This document shows, in pieces, positions 522 through 39,500 of a DNA stretch of 64,000 nt. The stretch comes from Bispira polyomma (taxonomy: Eukaryota). How positions within the stretch are numbered: the first letter of the stretch is position 1; each line of letters opens with the position of its first letter. The notes below the pieces were generated by a model. That model did no database searches. It was given only the letters and a program-made list of their open reading frames with translations, and was not told where the DNA came from. A program made the position numbers and the translations under genes. Location: positions 11,656,001-11,720,000 of the forward strand of contig OZ287748.1 of assembly GCA_965649765.1 (NCBI GenBank), in the 5' to 3' direction.

Positions 522-3500
522 CTCTAGGAAGGCATCAAACATTGTCTGTAGCTTTTCCTTATATGGGTAGATGTTGTCTGGTAGCTTCTTTAGCCAGCAT
601 TCCACAAATGGGGGAATACCCAAAATACTGGGCTCTAAGTACACCATACCACAACGACTCACAGTGGCAGGGGAGGCGACAGCCAGATCTTGTACCTGTA
701 AAACATACATGTAATTAAGTAAAAGCCTATTGTAACCCTCTAAGTACACAATACCACAACGACTCACAGTGACAGGGGGGGCTTAAAAGCCAGATCTTGT
801 ACCTATGAACATTTACTTCACTTGACATATACCTTTACATTTTATTAACTGACTTTCCACAGCCTTCCATACTTTCTAATCTTTTCCACTTGTGTGTACA
901 ACATTTATCAATGTGACTGTAGATCTTACTGGACTTGGATTATGGACCTTGGGTTGGCACTACAGTTCTACTAAATAATTTCAATATACCTTGGATCTTG
1001 GCACATACTGGTATCCTAGTTGACACGGCAACTCTGTATCTTAATGTTATAAGCTAGACTGTACCCATGACATTACACTGTTTTCAAGGTAAGTCTAATG
1101 ATCAAACTTCATCTGACAATGTATGTGTACCTCAAACATCATGGTCATCTGGTCACTCAGTTTGATGATTTCTCCAGAGCTCAGACACAGCTTCTTGTTG
1201 TCATCCAGCACAGTGTTCATACTCTCAATCCAGACAGCGTCCACAGGACCATCAAACATGTACCACCTCATATCCTCATTGCCAGAGGACACACCCAGTC
1301 GGATCAGAGCAGGCAGGATACCATCAGTCCTAAAACAGAATTACCATCAATCCTGTAGGACTCACATAATTACCATCAGTCCTGTAGTACTCACAGAATT
1401 ACCATCAGTCCTACAGTACTCACATAATTACCATTAGTCCTATAGTACTCACATAATTACCATCAGTCCTATAGTACTCACATAATTACCATCAGTCCTA
1501 CAGTACTCACAGAATTACCATTAGTCCTATAGTACTCACAGAATTACCATCAGTCCTATACTACTCATACAATTACCGTCAGTCCTACAGTACTCACAGA
1601 ATTACCATCAGTCCTATAGTACTCACAGAATTACCATCAGTCCTATAGTACTCACAGAATTACCATCAGTCCTATAGTACTCACAGAATTACCATCAGTC
1701 TATGAGGCCATGTAAGTTTATCCCTGAACCACGTTTGAGTGACACCGCTGTGGCAATGGTTTGTCAATGGTGGCCCATGAAACTTATATGTCCACGGACG
1801 GACTCTGTTGTGGGGAAGGGTATAATAATTGCATCAACTAGACAGTAAGACTTGTAACATCTTATGTAAACAATAGTCTGCCAGAACCTACCACTCGTGA
1901 GTCAGTGGGTCAAACTCTCCATACAACTGCCCCATGGTGATAGACTTGGGGTTGAGGACATAAGTGTGGACCTGTTCAAAGTTTGTGCCATCTGGGGCAA
2001 CTTCCCCTTTTACGGCAGACATGGCCCCCTTTAGGACTTCAGAGCACTGAAAGGATAACATGAGTAGTGTCAACTTTATAAGCTTGCTTCTTCTGGGATT
2101 CGAACTGTGGCTCATGGGGATTAATAGTCACACACACGAACAGTTCTCTGCTGGGATTTGAACCATGGCTCTTAAGGATTCTCGAGACTAATAATCGCAC
2201 ACACAAAAAGTTTTGAGGTAAAGGAGAAACCCCAGAAGCCCGAGTGTTTAATGCACTTATATACATAGATCTTACAGTAGTGATGTATACCCTTTAGAAC
2301 CTCTGAGCACTCAAAGGATCAGTATAATAAACTGTACACGATAGTGTAGTACTCCATAACATCACTCAACAACAGTGTTTATCTTCTGCATATGTCACAC
2401 ACTTATTGCTCTGAACATGTATAGTTATAAACATAGTCATATTAGTCTCCTATGTGGCTTTGTTAAATATACAGTTTGACTTCAGTAACTTAGTAGTTTG
2501 GGTTTAACCACACTTTCGACTGTCATACAACAATCAGGCAGTTCACCGGTGGAATAAACAGGGTTAAGGTTTTCCATTCTACAAAAAACCAGCCTTCAGC
2601 ATGTCTATTGCCAACTTTATGACATACTGGGGGGGACAGAAATTCGTGGTGGACAGCATTTCGCCATAAATATGGTTATTACACCTAATCACTGTCTAAA
2701 ATTTATTTTAAAGGAATTATTTTTGCATTATAATATCCATATAACATACACATGCCTATGCCACAAATATATAAAATATTGTCTGCCTAAATAAATTTTA
2801 AATGAATTTAAAGTACCAACACAGCTTAATAAACAATGATACTGCTCAAAATGTGAGGTTGATGATTAGACAGTACTAATGATTGGCTATTGGGTTGTAT
2901 TGTGGTTTCTTTTCTGTTTCTCATATTATCTATCGTTCACATAAACTATTTCATAACATAATTATTATTGTTAATAAAACTTATAGGTAATATTTTAATC
3001 TAAATATTTACTATTGTTTGATAATGGCGAAATGCTGTCCACTTTTTAATCAATATTAACCCAGTGACTTTGGTTTCTAACTTGTGGTTAAAATTCATCA
3101 GAAGTACCTTAATGTATCTGGATATGAGTCAGATTTGTATTCAATGGAACAACCTCCACAAATTACCAGTAAATTGCCTTGACATTATTTTGTTTTGCTT
3201 ATATTTGTCAAAGTTCCATGAATTTCGAGCGAATCACTGTCCTCCCTGTACATGCCAGGGCCAAGCTTCTAAGCCAAGACCACATGAGGTGAGAGGTGAG
3301 TGTGTTAACTCTATACCACCTAGGTCCCCCTTACTTAGGTAACTCAGTTAATGTATAATAACCATTTCAATCCTGCCATCAGTCATGTTAAAACTAACAC
3401 TATTTGGGGGGGGGGGGGGAATAACATAAACACCCACTCTCTTGTATTTACAGAACACAATGCCTTGTGTAAAATCAATGCATTCTCTTAGCACAGATAA

Positions 3501-6500
3501 ATACACTAAACAACAAGACACCTGAGAACTCTATTCCTTACCTTAGTCTTTCCCGATCCAGTTGGTCCTACCAACATGAGACCATGTCTGACGACTGTGG
3601 TTTCATACAGCTGGATACACTTGTGTATAAAGCCTTCCACATCCTTGAGTCCTTTTTTCAGAGCAGTCTTCCTGAGTGACGTATCCAGGGACCCATAGTC
3701 TATCGCTTCCTCCTTAATGTTCGGGAACAAGTCCGATACAATACCAGTAAACAGCTTCAGATCGTCCATCAAGAACTTGGGCACATTCACGTCTCTGATC
3801 GCTCTCAAGGCAATCAACTCCTCATCCATATCTGGGTTCTGACGCTTCAAGTTTCCAGCAGCAGAAATCACAGACTTTACAGCACGCATACCAAAGTCAT
3901 AATGGTCCTGTAAGACAACATATTAAGCAGCTGGGATGCTATTCAAAAAACATTTTATTTAGTTTTTTTTTTTTGAGTGGCTGGTCAAACCTATGTAAAG
4001 CTAAAAATAGACAATTTTTAAGAATGGCAGAATTTTAAGAATGCTAAGTGCACATGGATAATGTGCATGTGAGTGTTACAATAGCATTATATTATTAAAA
4101 GCCGGATTTCCCCCAAAAATTTTGGACAGGTTTCATTTTTGTTCATTTGGCTAAGATAACAGTAACTGAAGTACACATGAGCAAAAAAACTGTAAACAGG
4201 AAATAGACTTTCACAAGAGGTTTCTATGATGTGGAAATGGTGAAACAACAAAGATTTCAAGGTTTACATGGAATTTTGTACAATAATTCTGCTTAATTAT
4301 ATCTATTTTTTGGTCAACTGGTTCTTGCTTTTGATGTCCGATTTTGAAGACTTTTTTGCTCTAGAATCCAAAGTGAACGTTATAATCTAGTTTGCTGTCT
4401 TCTGCTCTGTGAAATCTCCAAGTTTATTGAATATATAAAACTGCCATCTTAATGGTACAAATGTATTTCCAAGGAGGTCACATTCTTTTAATAATTCGGC
4501 ACAAGAGGTCCTCAGTGGCTTTTGTGAAATTTAAACAAACACAAACATAAAAGCATAAGTTCATGGTATATAATTTGTGCATAAGAAGACACTTACCTGT
4601 GAGCTGAGCTGTTCTGACGACAGTTTGAAAGTGGTGACAATTTTCTTGGCCAAAACTCTAGCATCAGAAAAACCAAATGAGAAGAGTGAAATCTCAGCAA
4701 TCAGAGCATAGTCAGGTACCATCATAGCCACTGGGCGGAACAAGGCCTGTAAAACATTGAGATCTTAGCAATCAAAGCATAGTTAGGTACCATCATAGCC
4801 ACTTGGCGAACAATACCTGTAAAACATTGAGATCTTAGTAATCAGAGCCTAGTTAGGTATCATCATAGCTATTTTCTATAACCATTGGTCAGAATAATGA
4901 ATGACCTAAAGGACCAAAAGCTGCCACTGGTACTGAGTAGTTAGTCATATCATTATTGAATGTAAAACTTTACTTAAAGAAAAATTATATAAGCTGGACC
5001 AAACCTGAGATTGCCAATATACATGTATGACATTAACTGGAAGAATATTTCACTAATTTACAATTTTTTAGAAACTCATTGGACTTTTTTACTATTGGGC
5101 AACTTTTAGGTAATTAACATAAATTAAAATTTCACTGGCAATTAATTTTCTCTATCCAGGGTCATCATTACTAAAAATAGCTTGTAATAAATAGTTCTAA
5201 ATAAATTTAAATTTCACTGGAAATAATTTTCACTATCCAGGGTCATCATTACTAAAAATAGCTAAACTAAATTCCTGGTGAACATTTCTACTGATAGAGT
5301 AAGCTTTAATTGATGCTGAGTACACTAAGAGGTCAGAGTGAACTGCACATTATTACACACAGTCTCCTGAATATATCAGGTGTTTTACCCAACCCATTAC
5401 AGACATGCATTACCTTCAGGTTATCAGGTAACTCGGTCCTACCAGCATAGCCAGGGTTCATCGTAATAAAGACAGCACAGGAAGCTTTCAGTTCTAACTC
5501 CACCCCCTCAAACATGAACCTCTCCAGCTGTACAAACAAGATATAGGTCAAGGTTACTAAGTGAATGTATATTACTATGGTATATATGTTATTTTAAATT
5601 TATGTATACAGCTTTAAAATACATTTGTAAATTTTAGATACCCAAAAATTAATAACATAAACAAAATTATAGACTTAAAGCTTTAGGCTTAAGAGACATG
5701 TATACGTTACAGTCAATATGTGTAATCAGGGAATACACCTCCATGACTAAAATACATCTTCATTGTAACATACCTGTTATATATGACTGATGTATTCAAT
5801 AAATAATTACAGATTTTCTACACTAAAATAGTATATGCTCCAGTATTATTTTATAAATAGATTCAAAATAATGAGTACAATATTTGTATATGCCTATATA
5901 TAGTTCTATATAAATATAGAGGAAAAATAGATGGGCTAAAATATGAAAGCTTGGTCATCTTTGAACTATGAACAAATTAAGGTTCTCTGTATATTATACT
6001 ATAGTGACAAAACCTATACTTGGCATTTTAAATGATACTGCGATAGTTTTAATACAAACAGGTACACATATACACATTATTTACAGTTCTGTATACTATC
6101 TGCAACACATGAAGGTGTAATATTATTTCACACTTAAAGTTAGTTTATTTATGTACAAAGTGATTACAATGTGCATCTTTGAAAAGCAAACTACACTACA
6201 GGTGCTATTAAGTGCATGAACACTATATGTATGTGATTAAACCCTACAACCAACAGAGAAATAGGAGTTCTTAATGCTATTACAGTAGACTCTGTATAAG
6301 TAGAACAGTGTAAGTCAAATTTAGATATATATTAAGTGGAATCAGTTTTGAGGACCCAACATCAGAAAATGCTGTGTGGAAGTTTGCTACAACTGGAACC
6401 AAATACTGTCAATATTGAAAGTTTTAGTTATATAGAGTCTACTGTATAAACTTTAGACATTGAATACACAAAAATTGTAGTTTTTACTGCCACAAAGGGT

Positions 6501-9500
6501 TAAAGAATGCTTTGAACTAAGCTAGCTATGTCTACAACATACACTGATATATTGTCGAGGATATATACTTTACTTCATTTATAATATATTTGAGGCACTA
6601 TATTAACTTAATTATTATCATCCTTACACAAAAACAATTATATCATTATCATTTCAGTATTTCTCAGCCAGCGGGGGATTTTGACAAGAAACTTTTTGCA
6701 AAACAAAACTATATAAAACATATATAATAGGCAAAAAACCCAAAACCAAAAGTCAACAGCATTCCAACATGAAACAACAAATGATTAAGTGCAAGAGAGA
6801 ATCCAGTGATAATACTGGACTCCTTATTGTATATAGTACCCCTTCTTTCTGAGCTGCATGCATTGTCATGATCTGTTGAGCCACCACTGATAACACCTCA
6901 ATGTCAATACGGTTAAACTCATCAAAACAGGCCCACGAGCCAGAACTGCGGAAGGGGGTAATACAAAGGGGAATAATATATATATATATATATATGTATA
7001 TAGGCTGAAATATGGTTCTCAAGAACAAACAGGCCAAAAAAATGTATGGCTTAAAAAGAATCTGCGAAATCCAATATGACATGTCGGATTACGAGATTAT
7101 CTTAACCCTTTAGGGTGCATTACGAGCGAGTGTATTGGTCATGTAGTATTGATAGAAAACAGGTACAACCCGAGTATGTCTTGGGAGTATTTACAACTGT
7201 TTTATAGCATTTAATTATGCATTTTTTTACGAAGTGACTTGAGATATGTTCCAATATCGTCAGGTTGAGGCACATTCATTAATAAAACTGTTAATTCACG
7301 GCTCGAGCATGGGCGATTGTTATAAACTCGCTATAAACTCTTCCTTATTGTTGTGGGATTTAAACATATGGTTTCTTATTGCAGAAAAGATTTAATCTGA
7401 AATTGCCCCCATAATTGTCTGGCTGAGCCCAATATGTAGTATTAATATAGGATGAAGTAAAGAAGAGAATGTTTGCGTTTTACTAATTAAATATAGAATT
7501 CTCCTGAAGCCCTGTGTATGTTTTATCACTTCATTCCTTCCGTTGGGGAAAAACACCTACAAGTAAACTATAAAAGATTGTAAAGTCGATATAAATACCT
7601 TGTTTACATTGTTTAGTGTGTAATGTGTATATATATCCTGCCGGGATTTTGATAAAGTCATTTTTGTAGTTTCTAGTCTAGTTTCTAATCAGTCCTAGTC
7701 TGAAATGTGTTCCGAGTTTACAATGCTTTGGACACGTTGTACGTGCTCCAAGCTTTGCTTTTTTTTTATTGATTCTACATGATATATATGTGTACATTAT
7801 GTCTTGTTGAGTCCTTTCTCAGTCATTTCTACCTCATTGGCCGTTGACATACACGTTATTTTCACTCAAAGCTGCTATGTCGGCAATTACTGCACACATA
7901 ATTTTTATTTATTTCCAGTTTGTGGCCAAAGGGTTTGGATTATATGAATAATAGACTGGTGCTTTAAAAATCACAATAACAGTCATTACACATAGCAGAA
8001 GAAATCAGTGTTACGGCAATTGATTGAATTTAGGAGTTTTACTTTTCTGAAGATGAAATCATTTCGTAAAATTAGGAAAGTAAAGATAAAATTACCTCAT
8101 AAATTAGGAAAAGCAAGATGGTAACACAAGAAAGTGTACCTGTTAGATAGAATTATTATGCAATATTAGTCATCTAAATAGCACTATTATATATATATAA
8201 TATTGGTATTAATCAAATAACAATAAGAAAATTGTTTGACATAGAGATATAGAAATGGTGATTTATCCCATATCTATCACATATACAGAATCTACACACA
8301 TCAAGAAGCATATAGGAGAAATAACTAAATATAAGTTAATAAGTCTTTTGGACAAGAAAGCTGTAAGGATATGATAGAAATATTAAAATCAAGGTCTACA
8401 AATGATTGTATTAGAAAGTTACAAGTTTAAGTCAGCATCAACCTTTCCCAAGTCTTACTTAAATTAAGAACAGTTTTATAGTCTATAATCTACCTGTACT
8501 GTATTGATGTGTCAAGCTCTATGCACTATGGCACAGATATAATACAATGTGTGATAATTTATCAATATATTAACCTCTGTACCTAGTATGCAAAACCTGA
8601 AAAATGGTTGATACTGAGGAAAAATAAATAATCATAATGAAAGACGATTATTAATAGATCATTCTTGGCTTTGGGAATGCCAACCAAATCATATATATAG
8701 TAAATAGGAATGGATCATGTATAGAACATGTGTGTCTGGCTGTTTGTTGTAATACACGCTTCTTTTAAATACAGTACTTCATTTAGATATAGAAAAACAC
8801 TCGAGTCAAAACTATTAAAAACAATAAAAAAAAAATAAGCCAGGAAATGTAAAGATTGTTGTCCATCAAATCAGCTTTTGTGTGCCAGACACACCAATTC
8901 CACAAGAAAGATATTGTTCTTCAACTCAGAACACTATAGTTAAATCTCCTGCCCATGTATCACATGATACAAAATAGAGCGACAGAACAAGCATATGCTT
9001 CTAAATGGTGTGGCCATCAAATTTTTTGTGTGGATGTTGAAAATTTGGTTTATTTTTGTTCTAGGTTTAGAGTGTCTGGCGTTGCATCAAAACGATACAG
9101 GAAGTTGCACATAAGCTATAATTGTAGACAGGAAGTACATCACCTCAAAAATTTGAGAAACTTTTTACGATGCAAAAATTAATTAAATTAGCCAATAATA
9201 ATTTTTTTTATAATATGGATATAGTGAAATTACAAAAATTTTAAGGTCCGAACAAAATACTGTATACAATAATTCTGCTTAATTATAATTTTTTTTGAGT
9301 CAACCATTTCTTGTTTCTGATTTCTGACAGACCGCTTTAGAATCTAAAACGAAGAAAATATTGGTATTCGGTTTGCAATCTTCACTACTATTTTAAGATG
9401 ACATGAAACTAGAATATATATAAATGTATATCGACCATGTAGGAGATTATGGCAGTATAGTGAACTGAAGAACTGGTAGCTGGGTAGTATTATTATTAGT

Positions 9501-12500
9501 AAGAGGTAGTGATGGGTCACAGATGGAGAGTTTTGGAGACAAGGTCAGTGATGAGTCGTACCCTCTGCGCCTGTGCTTTCTGTATGGTAGTGATCTGCTG
9601 GGCAACCACGGACAACACCTCAATGTCAATACGATTGAACTCGTCAAAACAAGCCCAAGCCCCAGCACTGGAAACAGTAGCAAGTCATCATAAAGTGAGA
9701 CTAAAACTAATACATGTACAAACTCATATATTCAAGCCCCAGCACTGGAAACAGTAGCAAGTCATCACTGGGTCAGACTAAAACTCTTACATCTACAAAC
9801 TCATCTAATCAAGCCCCAGCACTGGATACAGTAGCAAGTCATCACTGGGTCAGACTGACAGTTTTACATCTAGAAACTCATCTTATCTCTGGTCTGCCAT
9901 ACTGGCAAAAAACCCATATTTTCTAAACAAAATTTACCATCTCTAAATTCCTTAAAAAAGCTATACAATATAAATTAAAGCTTTAATTTGTATGTTATAT
10001 CCTGAGAAATTATGACCAGGTGTCTTGTTTTTTTATAGAAATAATCTTCACAGACTTTTATATGCATGTAAGAATAAAACGTTCCCTCCACTACTAACCT
10101 TGCCAAACCTTTGAAAAATTTCCCCATAGCCATGAAGTCCAGCTGGTCAGAACAGTTGAAGACCACACACTGAATAGCCATGGCTTTGGCCAGATCCTGT
10201 AAGACAACATAGGAATTTAAAGTAAGAAACAAGTAGAGTATCGGCACCTCAAACACAGTCTAGATGGTTTGTTGAATTACCTACATTTTTGGTATAGAGC
10301 TTCATATATGATAACATCATATATTGTAGTCAATCATAACCACACTATATAGTATTTAGGCTAGGCTCATCTCGAAGTGAAGACAAAGGTTGGTAACTTC
10401 ACATATATTATATACAGTACAGTAACTATAAATATCTACAGTGTCTTGATATTTTTAGCTAAGATACATGTATATCCATATTCATGGTCAATATCATTCG
10501 TATTCTGTGTAAATCCTTACACCGTTTTATTTGTGTCAAAATTATACGGATCCGCGATACGGATCCGATGTGTGAATGGACCTTAACTCAATTTTTTCAC
10601 AGACAATTCAGCTTATATATTTGACACAGTATTTGTTGTTTACAGGGAGCAATTCCACTTTACCGGTACAAGGCAACTCATATGTTTTTACCACTTTGCC
10701 TTAAGACAGCCTATATTTGCCCCAGTATTTGTTCTAGTTTCTTGTATACAGTTTGTCAGACATTTCCATACCTTGGTGGTCTCCGTCTTCCCAGTACCAG
10801 CGGGCCCAGCAGGAGCTCCCCCAAACTTGAGATGAAGGGCCCCGGTGAGAGTGAGGTAACACCTGTCTGTGAGTGGGGTAATGACAAGACGACCCGTGTT
10901 ACCCAGGTACTCAAACCCATAGGGAAACTCCGCATTGACTGCACGGATAAACAGGGAGTCATCGTGCCAGTAGTATCTGATAACAGGTCACAAACACAAG
11001 GCTAAACGACCTTTTAAGTGAACTAAGTGAAATGGGTGTCTATATATTGTAAGGAAATTGATAACTCGGCACATTTATACACCACTACCCATTGGTATTC
11101 ATTTGGCACAATTACACTAAAACTATGATCGGCAAATTATACAGGGACATAACAAAAAATGCATCACCACTGATGAAGTGTCTTCAAAATGAAACCAAAT
11201 TTTTACATTTTTGCATTAGTAAAAGACAATTACAGAAATTAAGACTACATAAGCCTGATAAGTTTCCAGAATATCCTGCAAACACAATTTATTCTCAGTT
11301 AAACATTAATATTCGAGACGTCTATGTGTAAATCTACAAAAAAACGGTAATCTTTCCCAGAATAATGAAACAGAAGAGTCATAACTACCTGAGTTGACTG
11401 ATCCATTCAAAGTCATTGACATTGTTGACATTCTCTTCAATCATCTTGGTGACCACATCTCTGGCATGTACTTCTATCACAATCAAGGCGGACAACACCT
11501 GTCTTCCGATCTTACTCAATGGTTGCCTTACCAAGTTCCTTAAATCATCCAGCTGAAATAAGATCACATAATATTGCCGTAAACGTATGTGGGGACCATG
11601 TTAAGACTCTGTGGCAATTATCTGTTGCATTAAACTGTTACACACAAAATCTAACGCTTACAGATGTTTAATAGGAACTCGAATGAAGATAAATGCTGAG
11701 CTGGTCCTAACGGATAAATAAAAATTCAGATTCAATTATATTATATGATTATGTCCCAATTTTTTTGGCCAGTCTAATGGTGAAAGAAATCGGAACAGAG
11801 CAGTTGGTCAAGGTTTTCTGCTCTGCAATCCATATGCCTTCACCAAGTCTACTGCCAACTTTAAACACATAAACGCCAGTGCTGAGATTCAAACCTACAA
11901 CTGAAGCAGTTGGAGGAGAGTGTGTTACCACTACACCACAGGCCCCTCTCTAGACAAAATATGCAAGACTTAGTGTGTTCAGGGGGTTGCGAACATTGTG
12001 AGCCACTTTTTTTGTAACTGATTGACAGCTTGGGCTCCGGAAATGATTAATCTGACGTTATTTCATTCACTTCATATTAACAACACTTTACACACTTCAT
12101 ACTAAGAAATATTGACATTTTTGTAAAAAATACTTTGACTTATGCTACTTTTCGACTTCTGTTACTAACACAACACCTTAGAAGTGTAACCCTTAAAAGT
12201 GTAACCTTTGAGGTCAGACTGACACATTATGTCATAGTTCTAACAACAGCTGTATACCTTACCTGTGCGACGAGTTTGGGGAAGTAACCTTTGAGGTCAG
12301 CCTGCTCCAGGGCGGCGGCTACCTCAATAGTCCAGTACGTCTGACAGCCAGCAATGACCAGCTGTCCAGGCCACTTCAACACCCAGTCTGATCGGGCAGT
12401 CTGTAGTCACAACATCAGACAAAGTGTAGAAACTAGACTATTGTACAATATTGCACAATGTCACCAAATAAAGGCATCACAGGTTTTGGACTACAGCTAT

Positions 12501-15500
12501 TACTACTACCCTCTATTGTAGAAGATGGTGAACTGCATATAAACACACCATTTGTTTTCGATATCAAGGTTTATCAGAAATCAAAAGCAAAATTATTGTC
12601 CTTGAAATCTTTGTAATTTAACAATATCCACATCTGTTCATAACAAAATTATTAATAACTATTTTAATAATTTTGCATTATTATTGTCTTTAAAATCCTT
12701 GAAATTTAACAATATCCACATCATAACAAAATTATTAATAACTAGAATCTATTTTAAAAAATTTTGCATTGAAAAATTGTCAAACTTTTACGAAAATCCA
12801 TTTCCGGCATCAGCAAAAGCTGAAAAATATAAAAAACCTCATTTTGTCCAGAAGTTTCATTTGGAATCGGGTGTTAAATTGTAAAATTTGATAACAACAC
12901 TAGTAACTGCGAGTCGGCTGCGAGTCGGCTGCGAGTCGGAGTGTGAAAACTGCATCGATTATCACCCACTTAGACTTAATGCATCAATGGATGTATTAGA
13001 AAACCAATCACAACCAAATAAAGTGCTGATACATACCTAAACTCTACTGTTTTTTTGTCTTTTTCCAAAATATATAACTTAAAATTTCAGTGTAAAATGA
13101 ACATAAAGTTAGATAGGCCATTAATCGCTTTACTAGTACCCACCACTTTATAGTCAGCCAGGGCCTCTTCCATGATGAGCCTCAAGCTCTCCTTCATGAC
13201 TTTCTCCACCTCCAGCAGCCAGTCCTCTACATTACCTCGTGGGTAGAGCACATTCTTGAAGGGAACCTCCTCCCCTTCACCAGAGTACATGGTTGTAATC
13301 TGCAGGTCATCCTCAAACTTCAACTACAACATACATTACAAGTAAAGGTGTGAGTCTAAACAAGCCTCAAAGGGAACCTCCTCCCCTTCACCAGAGTACA
13401 TGGTGGTAATTTGCAGGTCATCCTCAAACTTCAACTACAACATACATAGCAATTAGAGAGGGGAGTATTAACAAGTCTCAAAGGGAACCTCCTCCCCTTA
13501 AAGGGATCCCCTTCAACAGAAAATATAGAGGTAGTCTGCAGGGGTGGCTAGATTTAGGACAATGTCTAGATTTAGGGCAAGGTCTCGTATTCTCTAACAA
13601 AATTAGCAAGTCTTAGGCTCTTTTTAATATAGCACAAATGTATACCAGATTTTGGCTTATGACTTAGCTGAGTCCATTAGTGAAGGTCTAAGTTATTGTG
13701 GATTACCTTAGCAATGTCCTTAAAGTACTTCCTAAGATGTGGCTGTACTGCTGTGGCGGTGTTTGGTCTATGATTAGCACTATACAGTAAGTTAGTGTGG
13801 ATTACCTTAGCAATGTTCTCAAAGCACTTCCTAAGATGTGGCTGTACTGCCGTGGGGTCTTTGGTCTATGAATAGCACTATACAGTAAGTTATTGTGAGT
13901 TACCTTAGCAATGTTCTCAAAGCACTTCCTGAGATGTGGTTGTACTGCTGTGGGGTCTATGAATAGCACTATACTGTAAGTTATTGTGGATTACCTTAGC
14001 AATGTTCTCAAAGCACTTCCTAAGATGTGGCTGTACTGCCGTGGGGTCTTTGGTCTGGGAGAGGATCTCCAGCAGCTCATCATCAGACAGGAAGTAGAAC
14101 CTGGGGAAGGCCTGGCGCTTGGTCTCCAGGTACTCACTCAGACCCTTCTGCACCTGGTCTAGGAGCTTGTTACACTCACGCAGGTTGTCCAACAAACGGT
14201 TGTCTGGACACAGTGAGATGACCTGCAAAACAACACACAACATATATACCCAAAGTGACCCAAACAATTGTGTCCACTAACACTTGTGTCCATATTCCAG
14301 AATTCAGTACTTTCCCACTCCCAACTTTGTTGTGGGTGTTATAACATGTTAACGATACAGAGTGCAGCTAGACATCATCACAGTCTCTTTTTGACGTGGA
14401 AAAAGTAAAGAGTATACATGTACAGTAGAACCTCTATTATCCGACCATCTATTATCCGACTATTCAATTTTACGGACTCAATTTCATTCTCCCAAACTTT
14501 TTTTTGGCTATTGTTTTATACTAAAATGCCCCTTCTATTTTATGGACCTTCTATTATCCAAACAAATTCTCACTCTCCCAATATGGTCGGATAATAGAGG
14601 TTCTACTGTACTATGATTTTAGATGCACATGGTGTCTCCCTATAAAGGCATTGCCAAGAAGTCAGACAAATCATGATAAACTCAACAAGTTCCATACTTG
14701 TGCAAGTCTAGTGTACAGTATGTGTATCACCAGTTTATTGTTAATTAAACATAAATAGCCATCATAAACTAGACTTATAAGAACCTATTAAATGTTTATA
14801 TAAAGTTGTTTAAGGTTGAGTTTTGTCAGTTTTACAGCTCACCCAGAGCCTCTCTGTCTGTGTGTGTCTCAGTTGTTGGTTACGGTTTTGTTTGTCCGTG
14901 TTTACAGCACACCAGGGCCCATATTCACTAATAGACTTGGCCAAGTCTTGGGCTTAAATATTGTCCAAAAGTATACTAGATTTAAGCCTGAGACTTGGCT
15001 AAGTCTGTTAGTGAATACGGCCCAGAGCCTCTCTGTCTGTGTGTGCATATCAGTTTGTCAGGGTTTGTTAGTACTGACCTGTGGGTTCTCCTTGGCACTC
15101 TTCATGATCTTCCTCCACAGCCTCTCCATGGTCTGGTACCTCTTGCTCTCCACTGGCAGCTGTCTGTTGATGTCCTCACTGCTGAAGATAGGCTCCAGGT
15201 ACAGCCACTGTCTCTGGCACAGCAGCCACTCGTCCAGTACATCCTGAAAACAGCCACACAGGATGTGTAGTGACCGACTGACCATTTCACTCATCAGTGA
15301 CAATGTAAGATGCAGTGACCAAATGACCATTTCACTCTTCAGTGACAATGTAAGATGCAGTGACCAACTGACCATTTCACTCATCAGCGACAATGTAAGA
15401 TGCAGTGACCAACTGACCATTTCACTCTTCCGTGACAATGTAAGATGCAGTGACCAAATGACCATTTCACTCTTCAGTGACAATGTAAGATGCAGTGACC

Positions 15501-27500: not shown

Positions 27501-30500
27501 AACCTTCTGCTGTCCACCTAATTAATACAAGACACTCACTAACCACAGAGCCACAGTATACCCAGCCTGCTGCTGTCCACCTAATTAATACAAGACACTC
27601 ACTAACCACAGAGCCACAGTATACTCAACCTGCTGCTGTCCACCTAATTAATACAGGACACTCACTGACCACAGAGGTACAGTATACCCAACCTGCTGCT
27701 GTCCACCTAATTAATACAAGACACTCACTGACCACAGAGCCACAGTGTACTCAACCTGCTACTGTCCACCTAAGTAATACAGCACTCACTGACCACAGAG
27801 CGACAGTATACCCAGCCTGCTACTGTCCACCTAAGTAATACAACACTCACTGACCACAGAGCGACAGTATACCCAGCCTGCTACTGTCCACTTAAGTAAT
27901 ACAAGACACTCACTGACCACACTGACCACAGAGACACAGCCCCTACAGTATACTCAGGACATAACAATACAAATACCACACCGGCACAAACTGACATCTG
28001 TGTGACGATCTTGTGAGGCCAGCCTACTGCTTTGCACCTAATTACAATAACTCAAAGTCATATTCTAACAAGATGACCATTCTTATGTTAGGCATATACA
28101 ATTATTTAAAAGCATAAAATATGCACCCCGAGCAGTTTTAGGGGATCATTGCAATGGTGATTTAATGTAAACAAATTCAAAACGGCCAATTATACATAGC
28201 TATTTTTGTATTTTGTAAAAGTTTACTAATTTCAGTATCTTTGGAAGGTAAGGCTCTACAAAATAACTTATAATAATAGTAAAATAGCATAAATTTATCA
28301 GGCTTTACAGCTGTCCAGCAGCATCCCCCCATGAATCATTATCAGCCCTCGGGCCTGACAGACTGATTGATGTTGGGGCTACTGAAAAGCCATAATACTC
28401 TACCAAATCATGTTATTGTCCTAATGCCACTCACTTGGCATTGAAGTCGTCTGTGGAGAGGTTGTAGTAGAACTCTTCGATGAGTTCGTAGTCCTGCATG
28501 GCGTGGTCTATCAGCTCCTGGTGCTCCTTGATCGTCTCAGGGATGGACTTCATCCACTCGCGCATGTCAGACAGCTCTTCTATACAGTTAGCCTTCTCAT
28601 ACAGTTTCCTGGCAATGGCCTTAAACTCTTCACAAGCCTCATCTGCCTGGGTCCTCAGTTTCTTGGCCAGAAGCTCCAACACAGCATTTCCTGCACAAAG
28701 AAAAGAAGTCAACACTAACTATTAACATACATCTTTAAGTCATAAAATAGAAGAGGCATTTGATTTAAAAACAACAGGGAAAGATATATTTGGGAGAATG
28801 GAAATGTGACTATAAAATGGAATATTTGAGTACCATGGAATATTTGAGTACTAGAAGTTTTGATAAAAGAAGTTCTACTGGTGTTTTTAACCATATATGA
28901 ACTTCCTCAGCCTCACGGTTTCTGACAACTTGCCCCGGAAAAACTAGCGGGTGAAAACAATAGGCTATGGAGTAAAAATAGAATATTTGTAACTAGAGTT
29001 TGTGGGAGTAATACTTGAGAGTATACAGTAGAATCTCTATTATCCAAACATGTTGGGAGAGAAAAATATTGTTCAGATAGGAGAATGTTCGTAAAATAGA
29101 ATACATTTTTGTATGAAACAACAGAAAAACATAAATTTGGGAGATTAGAAATGAATTCATCAAATTGAATATTTGGATTTCAGAAGGTCGGATAATAGAG
29201 GTTCTGGTGTATTACCGAGTGCCTTCCTCTTCTTAGACAGGCCCTGTCTCACAGTCTCTGTGTTGACGTAGAAGGGTCCGATGGTGATATTACTGGGCAG
29301 CAGCCCCTCAATCACCTCCTTGGCATGTAGGTGCATCTCCACCTCCTGCTTCACCTCCAGGGCTGACTTGTTCTGACTCTCAAAGTCCCTGCAATATAGA
29401 TATACAATGTAGTAGTACTCGGCTGCTAAACAAACATCTTAGATGTCAGTCTGTTATCGACAATACAACGAAAGTGTACTAGATCACAGTACATATAGAT
29501 TACAGTACATAAACACTGCTGACAAAAAATGTCATACGTCAACCAGTCGAGAAAGTAGAACTACACAGTACAGCTAGATCACAGTATTTAACATTATTCG
29601 TGACCGTGTACAAGATCAAAATTAATCCAAATGATGTGTATACCCTTTACCATGCTATTTTAATGATAATACAATATTGTATAAATAGACAAGGGCTGGA
29701 AGAAACATTAGGTTATGCAACACCTAATGTAATGATCGTAACATCTCTTATTTAATTAGTTTTTGCACATTTTTAGTAGAATTTTACTCTGAACATATAT
29801 TACTAAACTCGAAACACACTCCACCTACTGTCGACTGGTACATACTTCTAGGGGCAGGCCCCCCAAAAAATAGATCAAATCAATCATGTTTCCTTAAATT
29901 ATAAAATCAACAATATGGACATTTAGAATTGCAATCAATTCCTGCTCTAGCTATAACATAGGAAAGAGTTGCTCACTTGACATAGGCATTGATGTCCATA
30001 TTCATGAGCTCCAGGTATTTCTCATACTGCCTGGCGTAGGCTTTAATGGGGATGAGAGACTTTGTGATGGCGCGTCGGATGGTCTCCCTCAACTCTACCA
30101 CATGGGGCTCATTCTCCCCAACAGACTCCAGTAGTGGTGTACCTGACCAGAAGATGTCCTCCATGATGTACTGGAAAAGAGAGATATATAGTGTACTGTT
30201 AGATATATAGAGTTATAATGTACCTGACCAGAACATGTCATACATGATGTACTGAAAGAGAGGGATATAGTGTACTGAAGGATAGAGATATAATGAACCT
30301 GACCAGAAGATGTCATATATAATGTACTGAAAGAGAGGGATATAGTGTACTGAAGGATNNNNNNNNNNNNNNNNNNNNNNNNNNNNNNNNNNNNNNNNNN
30401 NNNNNNNNNNNNNNNNNNNNNNNNNNNNNNNNNNNNNNNNNNNNNNNNNNNNNNNNNNNNNNNNNNNNNNNNNNNNNNNNNNNNNNNNNNNNNNNNNNNN

Positions 30501-33500
30501 NNNNNNNNNNNNNNNNNNNNNNNNNNNNNNNNNNNNNNNNNNNNNNNNNNNNNNNNNNTGACTGTAGATATATGTTGTAGTGCAATGTATAAACAATTTG
30601 GGGATATAATAGTTTTGTGTGTGTGGTTTTATATTATGTTTTGTAGAAATCCCTCAGCTTTTCCAGCTGGGGTACATTTTGTGTAGAACAAATGCCTTTA
30701 TCAAACAAACGGCACAGACTTTAACTGTAGAGACTTTAACAAATCCCTCACCTTTTCCAGCTGGGGTACGTTTTGTGTTGAACCTATGCCTTTATCAAAC
30801 AGGCCAATCAGAGTCTGTTCAAAGCCAGGCAGAGAGGTGCTGTAGTGTACACCTTGTGTGTCCATCAGCAGGTCCACATAGAACAGGGCATTCTTCTTAG
30901 GTCTGAAACAAGGGATTTAACAATTAACATTACAAGCAAATAGCCTTGGTGTGACGTATATCGAGGACGTAAGCAAGTGCACAGTAACTGACTAAAATTA
31001 GGTTATACCAGCTTTTCATTGGGTAATATGTAGGATAAACTACATTTTAAAATATTCAACAACTAATCGGAGCTGATGTAAATGATAAATGGCAACTAGT
31101 CAACTTCAATTTTTTTGGCAGTCGTGACGTCCCTAGTTAGGAATGTTATCAACATACTTGTATGGACTTTTAACCAGGTCAGACGTCCACTTCATTTCTT
31201 CCTCGACCTCCAGAGTGGAGTAGCAAGCATCCAGAATCATTTGAGTGAAGTTCACCAGAGAATCCTGGATCAGGTATCTCAAGGAATCCTGTAAATAATA
31301 AGTAAAACTACCTGAGTCATGTACATTATAATTTATGTGACCAAAGGTGATAAACAGTACAAAACAAGCCCAATAGGGCGGATACTGTGTGGTTTATCTT
31401 TTCGAGTCATATCATTTTTAAATATACACATCACTTAAAAGTCACAATTTCTATTATCTGTATAATTTTTAACCCAATTTTAATAACAAACATTCACTCC
31501 CCCAATTTTACATTTTGCTCTTGTTTCATACTAAAATCACACTTTTCTAGTCTATAAACCTTCTATTATCCAAACAGCGTATTGCTCTCGCAACATTTTG
31601 GGATAATACAGATTTTACTGTATTACATGCAATGTACCACTGGGGCCCCTATTTACTAACGGACTTAGCCAGGTCTTAGCAAAAGGCTTACGAATCTATC
31701 ACAAAAGTAAACTGATTTAAGCCTAAGACTTGGTTAAGTCCATTAGTGAATACGGGCCCTGGACACTAATTCTATCCAGACAGCACTGACCTGCATGTTG
31801 AACTTGACCATCTCCATAAACTTCTTCATCTTTGAGATCTGGTAGACTTCCCAGTTGGTCTCATGGATGTTGAACCATCCCTTACCCACATCCCTCAGAC
31901 TGGTCCTAATGGCGGCCCTCAGAGTGGTGATCCAGCTGTCCTTGAGGAACAGAGACACCTGCGCAAAGGGGAAAAGCATGCACTATTATGTGTTACAATT
32001 ACACACTACATGACAGTCAATGGTATGCATACAATTTTATGATGGAAACTTCAGACACTACAGATTATTAATATTATTAAAATTGTAAAAAACAGACATA
32101 GCTAGGCTCAGCTGTAAACTCATAAAGAGGCTTGCTACCACTGAGATTCAATCCTGGGTTGTTATGGATCTTGAGATTAATAGTCCAGTACACTAACAGC
32201 GAAGCTAAAAGGGAAGCCTTGAAAGCCCAAGTGTTTAATGCGCTGATATACACAGATATTATAATATTACAACATTAGTGATCCAGCAATAACTTGCCAA
32301 CTCCAGTTTGGACAGGTAAAGCTTCAGAGTGAGGCAGAGGACAGAATGAATTGATTCAAGGTCAGTAATTTAACATGTACCATTTTACTCCCAAATGGAT
32401 GTAAACAACATTACTCTTGATACCAGTGTTAACTAAAGGCCTGTAGATGACCTAAGTGATATGGGCCCGTATTCACGAAGGGACTTAGCCAAGTCTTAGG
32501 CTTAAATCTAGAACAAAGTATACTGATTTAAGCCTAAGATTGGGCTAAGTCCCTTTGTGAATACGGGCCCAGTACTAAACCTGAATGACCTGGGAAGTAG
32601 CCTGGGATTGTGTGAGTATATAACAGTGTTAACTAAAAGCCTGTAGATAACCTAAGTGATCACTACTAAACCCAACTGACCTGGAAAGTGGCCTGTGATT
32701 GTGTGGTGATATAACAGTGTTAACTAAAAGCCTATAGATGACCTAAAGTATCAGTACTAAACCTGACTGACCTGTGAAGTGGCTTGGGACTGCGTCTGTT
32801 CAAACTCCTCTAGTTTCATGTGTTTGGTAGTAGGGATGTGGAATAGAGACTTAGCTGCCACCTCGTTACACTCAGTCCTCACTCTACCAATGGCCTGGAT
32901 GGCTTCCTCTCTGGTGAGTAGGGAATTAAAGGCAAAGTTGTCATACTGCTCATCAAATGGGTACTCTGGTAATTCCATGATACAGCCTAGAAAAACACAT
33001 ATTAAACATTTATTGGGCTTTGTAACATTGATTCCACTCCCATCGAGCATTTAAAATGTGCATAAAACACTCGTTTCCAATGTTATTCCTACATTAGTCT
33101 GATGCTGTGTATCATTAAAAAAGTTAGATCTACCTAAGTCTACAAAGTAAAGTAACATTTTTTTAATACATTTCAAATTATACAGAGGCTGTACATCTTA
33201 ATTTGTTACTGTAACATAAAACTGCTAAACACTACTTTGGCTACCTTTGTCTGGCACTTCTTGTGATTTAGCTGCTGGTAAAGTGACAAAGGCAAAGGTC
33301 TGTGGATCCTCCTCTACTGTCTTGTCAAAGATAATCCTGTTCATAGATCTACAGAAGTCTATGTTCACTTCCTTCTCCAGCACTTGGATGTAGTCATCAA
33401 GCCTGAAACAGTGACAGGACTGGATGTAAGTCATGGACTCATGGCTAGAGATGCTTGTACAAAGTACACACAGTTAAATACTACATCCAAGCCTGAAACA

Positions 33501-36500
33501 GGGACAGGACTGGATGCAAGTCATGGACTCATGGCTAGAGATGCTTGTACAAAGTACACACAGTTAAATACTACATCCAAGCCTGAAACAGGGACAGGAC
33601 TGGATGTAAGTCATGGACTTATGGCTAGATGCTTAAACAAAGTACACACAGTTAAATACTACATCCAAGGCTGAAACAGTGACAGGACTGGATGTAAGTC
33701 ATGGCTAGATGTTTATACAAAGTACACACAGTTAAATACTACATCCAAGCCTAAAACAGTGACAGGACTGGATGTAGTCATGGCTAGATGTTTATACAAA
33801 GTATACACAGTTAAATATCAACTATAGTGAGAGCATGATGCTAGAGACTCTTTCAATATGCCCCATAAAATTTGTCTACACAAGCATAGTTCTAACTTAA
33901 TGTGGCTTTTTTGACATATAATGAGTAACTAGACTTAAACAAGTAAGAAGTAAATTAGTACCTTCATTTACCAAAAATTATGAAAGAAAAATTTAGGGTA
34001 TTTTAGTTACAGATATTTACGTTTAATATGTTCTTACTTTTTCCATTACCATATTATTAATGTGCCCATCTTTCAGTCACAAGGTACTGTAGCTTAAGTT
34101 TTGGTATATACCAATAGAACCTCTATTATACATACTTTTATTTCATCTCATTACTCGATTTTTTCAACTCATTTCATCAACTCTCTCAAACTTTTCCTTT
34201 TATTTCATACACAAAATGCCTTTAAGTCCTCTGTTTTAAAAACGTTCTAGAAGATGAACAAAATATGGCTTCCCAATATATTTGGATAATGGAGGTTGTA
34301 CACATTGCTGTTGTAACTTTGCAGAAAGTCACTATAATTACTGATATTTCTTATATATTTGATATATCTGGAATTTCTCTATTATTGTCTTATGTTACAG
34401 GGCCCATATTCACAAAGGGACTTGGCTAAGTCCCTTCGTGAATACGGGCCCAGAGTATCAAAATCAAAACTTATGCTGAAAAAGCAGAACCCTCAAAAGG
34501 GAATGTTTATTTCATAAAGTTCATAAATTTCTCTGGGGTGGTATTTATTAACAAACTTAGACAAGTCATAGGCTTAACTCTATACTTTTGTGCTATATTT
34601 AAGCCTAAGACTTGGTTAAGTCCCTTCGTGAATACGGACCCTGGATATGTGCATAAAGAAGTCTATATTTAAATGGTTTTATATAAATGTCATGCATTTA
34701 TATAGCACTTTATCTTGGTAGCTCAAAGGACTGTTCACAGTTTATACCCCCAGCCTGGGTTCTTCCACTTGGGTCAACCAATTGTTCACTCTTGGCTTCC
34801 TCAGGAAGAATACTAGCCATGCAGCCCCATACAGAGCAGACTAGGTGGAGAGGGACAACGTTTGTGTGAAGTACCTTGTACAAGGGTACAATCTCTAGGC
34901 CTGCAGAGAGGATCGAACCTTAGACACTCCGAGACCCTCTGATTCAAAGTCGCTAGGCCACGGAGACCATATATATAAATTAAAACAGACACTGCCAAAT
35001 GCCACAAATAAGAATACAACATGCACAAGCATTATTCAATGTATAAAGCAAATACCAAAAGATGCGAGTAATATATTAAGCTTTCAAAGCAATCAGTAAT
35101 GTATCCTCATGGAATCCAAGAGTATTGAAATACAAAATCGATGAGTCTCAACACTGATATTACATACCTCACTACTCCAAACCGGAAGAAGTGGCCTAAA
35201 GTTTATCATTAAACCTATACACTTTGACACCAGATTACTACAATTATATGAACCTATCAATATTTTATTATATCATTAGTTCCAGATTCTTTGCTACCTA
35301 AAAAAAGGGAAGCTAAAATTATCATCGAGCAGCAAATTTGCTAATCTATATTTGCTGAAATGATTTTAAACAATTAATCAATTAATGTACCATAATGCAA
35401 AATGTACCATATGTACTTGGCTGATTTTGATTGGTTGGTTGTATATACAGATAGACAGTGTAAACATACAGCCAGCTGTTCTCCATTGTAAGCATTCACA
35501 GGTACTGGACACAATGAAATCTTAACTTCTGCCTGATTTCTAATATTGTCAATCTTCTAGGTATATCACATTTTTGCACACTTGTTGAAGTAAAAACTAA
35601 ATCTAGAAGATATCGGTACCCTAACTACCCTTTATTGTGGGTGTTAGGTTTAGTGCCTGTAAGTATCATATAGGCCATGAGGGCCTAGTGGTTATTTATG
35701 TATACGTCAAGCACTTCCAGCATTTGCTTTATGTGGGACAGTTTTCCAAGTACTTAATGTAGGTCAGTGGTTTCCATGACAAATAGTACCGGTTTCTATC
35801 CCCCCAATAAATGTGTCCATCACAATGTGACAAAATATGTTAAAAGTGATGTAAAACCCTAATAAGTAAGGCAACATGTAAATGTGTAGCAAGTATCACT
35901 CAGTTTAAATTGAATAAGCCACAATATGGGCAAATTTAGGTTGAAAAAACATCAAATTTTTACACTTTCAATTTATCTTACAAAATCATGTATTTATCAT
36001 GTAGTTCTTATTATACCATTATTATGGCATGATAATTTTCTTGTAACCTGTCATATTGAATCAAATAAAATCAATACCATTGATTCTGATATAGTTAAAG
36101 GCTATCGATTTACATATGTACACAACATAATTACAAGTAAAAATAAAAACAAGGGAGGAGAAAAGATAATGCATTTACATTTGAATATTAACTGGACCAT
36201 GACTGTCAGCATTAAAAGTGATAATAGGCAAATAATTATTTGGTTTTTAAAATGTTGATTCATATGAATATCAACAACAAAGGATCAGATGACAAAACGA
36301 CAAACACAAAGACTTTGGGGACTTTTTTTAAGGTTTTTCTAAATTTTTGACAAATTACAGTTTTAAAACAAAGTACTTGGTCGAGTACAATGAAAGTACT
36401 TGGTCGAGTACAATGAAAACCCTTTGGGAAGGAGTATCTTTGATATTTACTTCATTAACATCATCTTGCATATTTTAACAGAATAATCATCCAATGTCTT

Positions 36501-39500
36501 TTTAAGCAATGGTTCAAGCCAAATGATCTATGCAATTAAAGTTTATGTGTAATAAATTATAATTATGTATATCTATAACAATTATTAATTTATCGATTCA
36601 TGATGCAAAAAAACAAAACATTTCTTCCACCTAGTAACTAGGACACTTATGTCTGGTCCATTCAGCGACATTATCTATACAATTATGTGTCTATAAAACA
36701 AAACGCAAGGTTTTACACAGTTTAGGCTTTATACAAGGCCAAAAACCCAACCCAAGCTTTAAAAACACATTATCAAAATCATGTACACGGATTGCTCCTG
36801 CTTTTTATTACCAATATAAATATTCTTTGCTAAAACACAAATTGGTGCAAGAGAAATAAATTCAAAAGAATACTAATGTGTGTTCAACATTTTTTATTAC
36901 TACTTAATTACTTAATTTTATATTAAGAAAAATAAAGAAATATAATATATGATATATTATTTTACTAAACCTATCTGTACACAAGATTTGAATATTAATT
37001 TAGTTGAAAAAGTACAAACAACATGATATGCTAACTTGTTGCTTTTTGTTTACAATTAGCTACCATATCTATTAACTTGTATTAAACAACAGTTGTATCT
37101 CCAGTGGAATCTACAAAGTGATTGATAAATAAATATACAAAGGGTGCTACTAAATATTAACAAAATGTGTAGAAAAAGTGAAAATAGTATTAAATTTACA
37201 GACCAACATGAAGTGCAGTGTCTATATCTAAGTAAAGAAGTGCAGTGTTATCAGAATACTTGAGTAGACAGGTGTATATACCAGTAGAGTAGACAGATGT
37301 ATATATATATAACAGTGAAACTTGTAGAAGACAAACTCCCTCGGGATATCGGTAAAAATGGTCGTTTATAGGGGTTGACCGTACTACATAAAACCATCTG
37401 TGGTATTTTTCGGTCGCCACGTAAATGTGGAGGGAGATTCAAAAATTCAAAACGTTTTGAAGTGAGCTATATTGATAAAAGCAGCTGATGAAATTGAAAT
37501 TGATGAAACACTTAAGTCATTCTCTGTGTATAGTAAGGGGATTAACTGCAAAGTCTTATATGGGAGAGGGGTCAAATAAATTCTACTTCTTTTTTAGTCG
37601 GCTTATATACATATGTGATTTCAATCACTAGAGGTCACCTTTATTTGTTATATTTGATTACCACTCCCTCGGTAAACTTCAGCAGTCGCATCTTTACAAA
37701 TAAAATCAGGGTCGCTGAAGTATATTACGGCAGTCGTGGTCGGCTTCGAAGGTCGCTTTTAATGCAAAATCACTGGGAGGTTTCTACTCACTTACAAGTG
37801 GTCATCGTTTAAGAGTGGTCACTGGCACAAGTTTTACTGGTAGTAATGGTTAGCTAGACCTCAGTGTGAGATACTCACGTCTTGTCTTTGGCCAGTGCAG
37901 GTGCTCCCTTGGCCCATTCAGTCATCCTCTTCAGAGAAGCCTGGTCCAACTCCCCAACCCCCTCCATAGGCATGCAGTCAATGTACAGGTTGTAGCGCAG
38001 GAAGGACTCCGTCTCCTGACGTGCTTGAAATGCATTGGCAACACGCTTGGCAAATACAGCGGGGTCTTCGGCCTTGAAATAAACTCGTACCCTGGGCACC
38101 CAGTACTGGCTGGGGAGGGAGACCCTGGTCCCTGGAGATACAAAAAATACACTCGCAAAATACACTACGGCCTTGAAATACACTTGTACCCTGGGCACCC
38201 AGTACTGGCTGGGAAGAGAGACCCTGGTCCCTGGAGATACAAAAAATACACTTGTAACCTAGGCACCCAGTATTGGCTGGGAAGAGAGACCCTGGTCCCT
38301 GGATATACAAAAAATACACTTGAAAAGTGGACACCCAGTACTGGCTGGGGAGAGAGACCCTGGTCTCTGGAGATACAAAAAATACACTCGTACCCTGGGC
38401 ACCCCATACTGGCTGGGGAGAGACCCTGGTCCCTAGAGATGGATAAATAGCATCGTAGTTTGGACCGTGACGTTGCACACCTGAGGAATAATTGTTCCAA
38501 ACATGAAATTGTTCAATTTTACGGTTTTTGAGAACTAGCCCAGACAAACTTTTGACAGCAGCAACCTGGTGAAAACAAAAACCCATAAAAAGACAAAACA
38601 GTTGTCAATCAGAACAGCTTAATATTATACTCCTCTAAAAGTCAACAATATGTATAAAAATCAAGGCACTACATTAAGGTTGAACAACTAAATAATTGAA
38701 TTAGCTCAAATTTAAACAGGCATAGAGTTTATGATCCTACATTAAAGTCATACAGAAGCAGTAATGGATGTGAAGATACACAAGCACCAATTAAATGTAT
38801 ATTAGATCCTCTGAATTCTACAAAATCCTTAATTCTTCAAGCACCTACCGTTTTTCTTCACTCCTCCATTGACAATGGGTTTTCCTGTAGCATCCACTAC
38901 ACGTCCATGGCCATTAACTTTCTGTACTAGCCAGAGTTTATTCTTGGGGTTAAAGTCAAGCATACCCACGTCAAACCACTTGTACTCGATAGAGGGCTCC
39001 TTGGGATCCACTGTAATCACAGTAATTTGGTTCGAATACTTTCAAAAAAGAACATACACAGAAAGCTCAAAAAGAAAGGGAATAACTGTTCTACCTTTAC
39101 ATAAAGCATTTTCTCAAACATTTGTCAATCGCAGTCACACAAGATTAAACGGACAATTTTACTCTTTGGTTTTAGGAATAGACCATGAGCACCTGGGGCC
39201 ATATTTATGAAAGGTATTAAATTTAAACTCACAATAATCTCAAAATAACTCCCACTGTATCTTTGTGTACAATAAAAATATCTAAATGATGAGTGCAGGT
39301 TTGAGTTGCTGACTAAAAGGTCTGTTAAAATGAATAGTAACACGAGTCACAGTTATTCTATAATAAGCAGAAATTTTTGGTTATTGGCTGTTCAATAGAT
39401 CTAACTTACAGTGATGTACATCATCCCTTGTTGGGAGCAGAGCTTTGCAGGGGACTGGCTTTCTGGAACCATTTTCTCTTCCAGCCTCAAGCCATTCCTC

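Follow-up and report, generated by a model that had tools for sequence, protein, structure and literature searches.

Why a single gene should carry, in so many of its introns, tandem copies of its own exon/intron boundaries is the question raised by a 64,000-nucleotide stretch of DNA from Bispira polyomma (assembly GCA_965649765.1, contig OZ287748.1, positions 11,656,001 to 11,720,000). This whole stretch is called the window here and is numbered from its first letter. It contained the 5' half of DNAH1, the gene for axonemal inner-arm dynein heavy chain 1. In our study, such copies were found to be concentrated at exon boundaries well above the background of tandem repeats, in DNAH1 as well as in other dynein and myosin genes. 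On their DNA features, they belong to the known class of boundary-spanning minisatellites named mirages.

Every junction was queried with 30 nt of exon and 30 nt of intron. The query was aligned locally with the intron of that junction, over a length of at most 1.2 kb, and at least 8 nt were required on each side of the junction. Copies spanning the junction were found at 15 of the 71 window junctions, on 15 of the 36 exons, and comprised 11 acceptors and 4 donors (Table 1). A preliminary description of the window had listed 16 sites with copies of the adjoining boundary. Fifteen of these were confirmed, whereas the site near 12200, listed as a donor-side case, was an exon-internal copy which did not reach the donor at 12263. 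The array copies were 83–97% alike, and at these 15 sites the AG or GT was kept in 45 of 47 decoys. Nine of the 14 window arrays detected by Tandem Repeats Finder (TRF) spanned a junction, against 0.76 expected. In the full DNAH1 gene, 28 of 144 junctions contained copies, 20 at acceptors and 8 at donors (p = 0.036). The window was picked in the preliminary description, and the unbiased figure for enrichment is therefore the one without DNAH1.

The wider sample consisted of DNAH1 together with 14 further dynein genes and 13 myosin genes, which were modelled in part; this gave 28 genes, 619 introns and 1238 junctions. Automatically modelled introns were dropped if they failed a gap or margin filter (239 of 279 were kept in one set, for example), and no cytoplasmic dynein was identified among the sampled loci. 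Copies were found at 165 junctions (13%), and 23 of the 28 genes were affected. Both boundary types were duplicated, with 90 acceptors and 75 donors (p = 0.28), or 70 and 67 without DNAH1. The acceptor excess of about 2:1 given in the preliminary description was thus a property of DNAH1 and did not extend to the other genes.

To test the concentration at boundaries, every array was counted once, and its unit was placed at random positions in introns whose arrays had been collapsed. A junction was spanned by 115 of 245 intronic arrays against 23.8 expected, a number reached in none of 100,000 simulations, whereas only 68 arrays lay at least 150 nt inside introns against 162.4 expected. The ratio of the junction rate to the deep-intron rate was 11.6 (gene bootstrap 7.0–16.4). 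Without DNAH1, 96 of 210 arrays spanned a junction (22.0 expected), and an independent TRF count gave 82 of 196 (19.9 expected). Relative to the intron interior, the excess was 8.1-fold in short introns, 8.3-fold in medium ones and 8.7-fold in long ones. Because of this enrichment over random placement, the background density of repeats fails as an explanation, and the boundary excess claimed in the preliminary description is real. Deep introns had a background of 0.13 arrays per kb. Across the genome, 35 arrays were counted in 19 scattered stretches of 10 kb, which amounts to 0.18 per kb and 4.3% of bases; a twentieth chosen stretch proved non-existent and was left out. Simulated intron-like DNA (300 kb) gave no events. 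The low-complexity filter was considered as a cause of the enrichment and rejected, since 116 spanning against 71 deep arrays were still found with the filter off. In a per-position control, copies were seen at 19.4% of junctions and at 6.9% of 1387 positions within introns; this control was set aside, because long arrays were counted many times, and was replaced by the event-level tests. Separately, the introns hosting a junction array were shorter after collapse of the array (median 440 vs 621 nt, p = 3e-4, 619 introns).

The units had a median length of 79 bp and ranged from 26 to 200 bp (117 of 124 units, with an offset of at most 200), and the median exonic part was 24 nt; some cases were single partial copies with no array. 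As stated in the preliminary description, the units were unrelated to each other: two cross-matches were found among 124 units, of which one was ascribed to intervening repeat DNA that the two units share and the other to paralogous exon sequence. The exon-side ends peaked 20–40 nt inside the exon on both sides (−20 to −40), and the bin at the splice site (−2 to +2) held 2 events only. The enrichment was about 28-fold for units below 100 bp and 1.8-fold for those of 100–199 bp. It was 4.5-fold for dimers, rising to 21.5–23.5-fold for arrays of at least 2.5 copies (Fisher p = 3e-4). The dimers of at least 92% identity included 8 of 22 that spanned a junction (2.6 expected).

Across the 28 genes, the AG or GT was kept in 568 of 624 decoys, which bears out the claim of many near-perfect decoys. 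No preferential loss of the decoy AG or GT was found, the difference from the real site being 0.02–0.07 per base and not above that of the flanks. Among the intact DNAH1 decoys, 97 of 102 would yield a frameshift or stop and 5 would give an open in-frame insertion. The length of the unit had no frame bias (33 of 105 were multiples of 3). None of 124 arrays contained a whole-exon copy, and at the DNA level no duplicated unit was found to be recruited as a new exon or intron. The decoys are likely tolerated, in view of the intact frame, the partial-exon nature of the decoys and the behaviour of human F7, where the most upstream donor alone is normally used according to the cited part of PMC1557585.

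Whole-unit instability of length was seen between recent paralogues of one myosin gene, which lies within a segmental duplication of 45–60 kb present on three chromosomes. One donor array contained 23, 11 and 16 decoys in the three paralogues, a second contained 5, 10 and 10, and one paralogue possessed an additional whole 78-bp acceptor unit; many further arrays in the duplicated segment likewise varied in copy number. In human segmental duplications, the copy number of internal tandem repeats at exon-intron boundaries likewise varies among recent paralogues, but those repeats, as described in the cited part of PMC2812944, are mainly contained in exons and create introns, whereas those found here occupy introns that already existed, and the exon stays complete. 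It was also observed that the C8 myosin copy has Ala in a conserved stretch before switch I, where the other two copies have Gly.

The class to which these arrays belong was not named in the preliminary description. Judged from the sequence, they are mirages in all the defining features that can be read from DNA: the units span the boundary, are of minisatellite size and locus-specific, occur at both ends, mostly keep the AG or GT and change in number by whole units. The original mirage paper is reportedly that of Canestro et al. 2002. In amphioxus, mirages have been named in Adh3, the globins BflGb6 and BflGb9, troponin C and PGBD5, somatic mosaicism was reported for the Adh3 mirage, and the mechanism was stated to be unclear (cited parts of PMC3087553 and PMC3902484). 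No interference with regular splicing is reported for them in the cited part of PMC3087553. As described there, the amphioxus mirages share with ours boundary units at either end, locus-specific units (10–160 bp), many kept AG or GT, an unstable copy number and an intact gene. They differ in being described at single loci and in a cephalochordate, whereas ours were found in a lophotrochozoan at 13% of 1238 junctions, with the enrichment measured and on DNA only. Human donor variable-number tandem repeats (F7 intron 7, CBS intron 13, interferon-inducible 6-16, lamin B2 and PDGF) are similar, in that their first monomer lies across the boundary and the intron holds repeated copies of the donor, in units of 37–100 bp. 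However, the list in PMC1557585, as far as cited here, covers few genes and the donor side only, whereas both sides and most of the sampled genes were affected in our study. A genome-scale count of mirages was not found in the literature searched, in which few subscription journals were covered, and such a count may still exist in print.

The genes were found to differ in the frequency of junction arrays (chi-square 53.8, df 17, p = 1e-5, in a set of 520 introns). Outer-arm dyneins carried arrays at 22 of 398 junctions against 124 of 676 in other dyneins (gene-level p = 0.006), and myosin II at 1 of 50 against 18 of 114 in unconventional myosins. Taken together, the six outer-arm dynein and two myosin II loci possessed arrays at 23 of 448 junctions, and three of the eight loci were devoid of them; this grouping was made post hoc, and of the outer-arm labels two were checked against PDB and the other four were taken from shared motifs. 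High expression is expected for outer-arm dyneins and for myosin II. As an observation of its own, two DNAH9/17-like genes (C6:20.53-20.57 Mb and C6:59.75-59.81 Mb) had very long exons, with matched open frames of ~470-880 codons, compared with 130–250 nt in the other dyneins studied here.

What the data call for is a DNA process with a preference for exon ends, whose effect on amplification exceeds that on birth. We tentatively propose that the mirage minisatellites may have been seeded, and above all amplified, by exon-anchored recombination or repair of DNA, filtered by selection and tolerated by splicing. In a repeat-rich genome, good matches between alleles or sister copies would persist in exons, and misaligned exchange and repair synthesis would begin or resolve there. 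Wholly exonic products would be purged, and the survivors would leave the exon whole with its own splice site. The decoys, being partial exons with no partner site, would lose to the exon-proximal site, and rare splicing errors would be sent to nonsense-mediated decay. A rather unlikely alternative is that exon chromatin, through positioned nucleosomes and repair linked to gene-body methylation, focuses nicks or Okazaki flaps in exon ends, where fill-in would produce duplications of 30–130 bp and the wholly exonic ones would be selected out. The restriction of the enrichment to units below 100 bp and the position of the breakpoints within exons agree with it, as do the observed/expected CpG ratios of exons (0.2–0.6), which suggest gene-body methylation, and small tandem duplications reportedly arise from fill-in at breaks (PMC8355091). 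However, nicks and flaps account for births and not for amplification, although multi-copy arrays were about 5 times more enriched than dimers; a polarity of acceptor and donor copies per gene, like that of fork direction, was not found (p = 0.23, 14 genes), and array frequency was uncorrelated with the CpG ratio. Work on rad27 in yeast reportedly describes flap-type duplications of similar size. Of these two candidates, recombination or repair on exon homology is tentatively preferred to fill-in at nicks.

The preliminary description had left two options, a mutational process focused on boundaries or survivor bias, and the latter in its plain form fits poorly, because the enrichment is equal across intron sizes and the ages are similar. 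Under survivor bias, births would be uniform and deep-intron DNA would be deleted or overwritten by mobile elements faster, while junction arrays would be shielded and recognisable. The repeat-rich genome, the lack of enrichment among the youngest dimers (a small set, given below) and the constraint on the exon part of one copy speak for it. Nevertheless, it is improbable: the excess did not depend on intron length, deep dimers were not more alike than junction dimers (0.883 vs 0.890), and unit pairs of at least 98% identity were mostly in junction arrays (45 of 80). Moreover, arrays that lay inside an intron but at most 50 nt from a junction, which would be about equally shielded, were about 3 times rarer per opportunity than spanning ones, even with misplaced mirages included in that class. 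The splicing or transcription machinery might itself make the copies, by reverse splicing, RNA-templated repair or R-loops at splice sites. Both types of splice site are affected, and donors with arrays had a higher crude motif score (8.1 vs 6.9, p = 0.002). Yet this origin is quite improbable, as the breakpoints lie off the splice sites and the units are unrelated; the copies retain exon-intron and not exon-exon joins, and the genes presumed to be highly expressed have the fewest arrays in the post hoc grouping. Introner-like copies made by the spliceosome were rejected in the same way, there being no dispersed families of units. It is very improbable that the decoys are selected, whether for tuning splicing and expression or for feeding new exons and introns. 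The kept AG or GT and the few open DNAH1 decoys would suit such a role, some human pseudo-sites are used (6-16 and CBS; cited part of PMC1557585) and mirages have been proposed as a path to the gain of introns (cited part of PMC3087553); against this, unit length was unbiased modulo 3, copy number drifts among near-identical paralogues, and no whole exon was copied, exon 29b (below) being old. An artefact of assembly has been largely refuted and retains hardly any probability. One array does meet a gap of 200 N, and the public runs possibly derive from the assembled specimen. However, the copies are alike and not identical, the same arrays occur on three chromosomes with other copy numbers, and one array is broken by an inserted element. 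Furthermore, a single public contig covered the entire 32573-32789 array without difference in 3 of 3 runs. Another contig connected the real acceptor 26356 with its first decoy. These three runs come from a single study with unrecorded library type, and possibly from the same specimen as the assembly.

Several observations weigh against exon-anchored recombination or repair as the cause. The frequency of arrays per gene was not correlated with intron length, exon GC, CpG depletion (observed/expected) or local array density (18 genes, all p > 0.35). The youngest dimers, of at least 95% identity, were not enriched (2 of 11 spanning, 1.2 expected), and the constraint on one of the copies inflates identity at junctions. 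No polarity of homogenisation toward the exon was found in 34 arrays (0.893 proximal, 0.894 middle, 0.889 distal). The acceptor units were intron-heavy, with 48 of 61 less than half exonic, which is not predicted by uniform initiation within exons. Among the clean dimers spanning a junction, 9 of 14 were partial copies, and many dimers contained a spacer, so that microhomology was unreadable. The enrichment sample comprised two families of motor genes only.

The preliminary description had also suggested that such repeats could feed new exons, exon 29b of DNAH1 among them. For 29b this was not supported. Exon 29b and its partner, the adjacent exon before it, are of equal length and the same phase, and 79 of their 106 nt are identical, with 18 of the 27 differences at third codon positions. 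Joint inclusion of both exons, which are located in the AAA1 region, breaks the frame. A variant like 29b, sharing its diagnostic residues, was found in the reference proteins of Haliotis and Ruditapes, whereas most other references match the partner exon. The two are most likely an old mutually exclusive pair and not a mirage product, and the apparent presence of both variants among mollusc reference isoforms suggests an old lophotrochozoan feature. A mutually exclusive exon in the cytoplasmic DHC1 of Schistosoma is likewise one of a same-length homologous pair in a dynein heavy chain (cited part of PMC3228551), but it belongs to another class of dynein, and the comparison concerns 29b only.

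The contig that holds the window is the largest of 75 in a genome of 1.035 Gb, and DNAH1 extends for ~121 kb past the left end of the window. The gene model, built with the flanking DNA and homologues, contained 73 exons, and every internal junction was GT-AG. When one of the two alternative 106-nt exons is skipped, the protein is stop-free and 4204 amino acids long. It was 73–77% identical to nemertean, gastropod and bivalve DNAH1 and 72% identical to that of Branchiostoma. In a tree of 36 sequences it grouped with lophotrochozoans, apart from amphioxus; the matches used for tree and identity included no named annelid or brachiopod reference.

Table 1. Positions of the mirage arrays, junction copies and related features (window coordinates unless a contig is named).
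Feature	Position	Strand	Basis
DNAH1, axonemal inner-arm dynein heavy chain 1, 5' half, exons 1-36 of 73	522..43963	minus	gene model, homologues
Single partial copy of acceptor 695, offset 107, AG intact	738..810	minus	junction alignment
29-bp unit x ~12.7; holds 11 nt of exon and acceptor 1329	1335..1706	minus	TRF, junction alignment
Degenerate ~30-nt copy of acceptor 2046, offset 263, score 40, 87%; weakest case	2289..2320	minus	junction alignment
70-bp unit x 2.7 across acceptor 4746, 60 nt exonic	4687..4874	minus	TRF
Alternative 106-nt exon 29b	6840..6945	minus	gene model, homologues
Partner 106-nt exon	9562..9667	minus	gene model
77-bp unit x 3 across acceptor 9667	9656..9887	minus	TRF, junction alignment
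21-nt copy of exon-internal 12284-12304, stops short of donor 12263; uncounted	12201..12221	minus	alignment
111-bp unit x 2.2 across acceptor 13323	13259..13506	minus	TRF, junction alignment
91/98-bp unit x 4 across donor 13994 (after 13995); 3 GT decoys intact	13689..14060	minus	TRF, junction alignment
45-bp unit x 13.8, entirely intronic, ends 25 nt before acceptor 15243; junction-adjacent, non-spanning	15269..15890	minus	TRF
43-bp unit x 4.7 from donor 17075 (after 17076), ~110 nt away from donor	16766..16967	minus	TRF, junction alignment
79-bp unit x 3.1 across acceptor 26356	26334..26578	minus	TRF, junction alignment, public contig
63/81-bp units; 14 decoys of acceptor 27031, 13 with AG; distal copy 27995-28039 included	27014..28045	minus	junction alignment
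75-bp unit x at least 2.9 across acceptor 30170; ends at assembly gap	30138..30358	minus	TRF, junction alignment
94-bp-offset copy of donor 30751 (after 30752); decoy GT lost (copy 30647-30707)	30647..30804	minus	junction alignment
91-bp unit x 2.4 across donor 32771 (after 32772), with older piece past inserted inverted-repeat element	32420..32789	minus	TRF, public contig, junction alignment
90/80-bp unit x 4.7; holds 8 nt of exon and acceptor 33402	33398..33820	minus	TRF, junction alignment
99/68-bp units x 5.5 across acceptor 38131	38069..38440	minus	TRF, junction alignment
Myosin paralogue copies	C8:1.20-1.26 Mb; C11:4.14-4.20 Mb; C13:27.27-27.33 Mb		sequence identity ~98-99%

Some of these features deserve a remark. 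Repeat-family DNA intervenes between the degenerate copy at 2289-2320 and its acceptor. In the non-spanning array at 15269-15890, a branch-point region may have been multiplied while the AG was not copied. The assembly gap (30359-30558) starts exactly at the end of the 75-bp acceptor array, which may be much longer. At ~32463-32570 there is a short element with inverted repeats, whose copy number is very high (contig depth of tens of thousands), and similar copies were seen at ~14915-15025, 31660-31760, 34400-34450 and 34535-34645. Since the first of these interrupts the 91-bp donor array, that array predates the insertion. On the plus strand, a long, GC-richer stretch with broken frames at ~51500-53800 resembles by eye a retrotransposon without long terminal repeats, with endonuclease and reverse transcriptase. 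To the right of the window (65,000-122,000 in window coordinates) tandem arrays were dense, with units of 24–170 bp.

What is new in our study is the measured enrichment at junctions together with the shape of the breakpoints, which makes the origin of mirages testable. General repeat density does not account for the mirages of this genome. Their cause has been narrowed to one which places breakpoints in exon ends, acts equally on both sides, uses units below 100 bp and biases amplification more than birth. In practice, gene prediction is misled by arrays of this kind, and assemblies may be interrupted at them; one adjoins a gap here. If the rate of 13% holds beyond the motor genes, the genome would contain many thousands of natural decoy series, which would permit direct tests of the rules of splice-site proximity and of the effect of exon position on mutation. 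It is possible, although doubtful, that this lineage has a duplication hotspot at exon edges, in which a germline DNA process recognising exon ends, by allele homology or exon chromatin, would have loaded about 1 junction in 8 with decoys and spared the most heavily used motor genes. If that is true, mirages would form a mutational signature of where exons lie, on the scale of the genome, and the choice of splice sites in an invertebrate would become testable.

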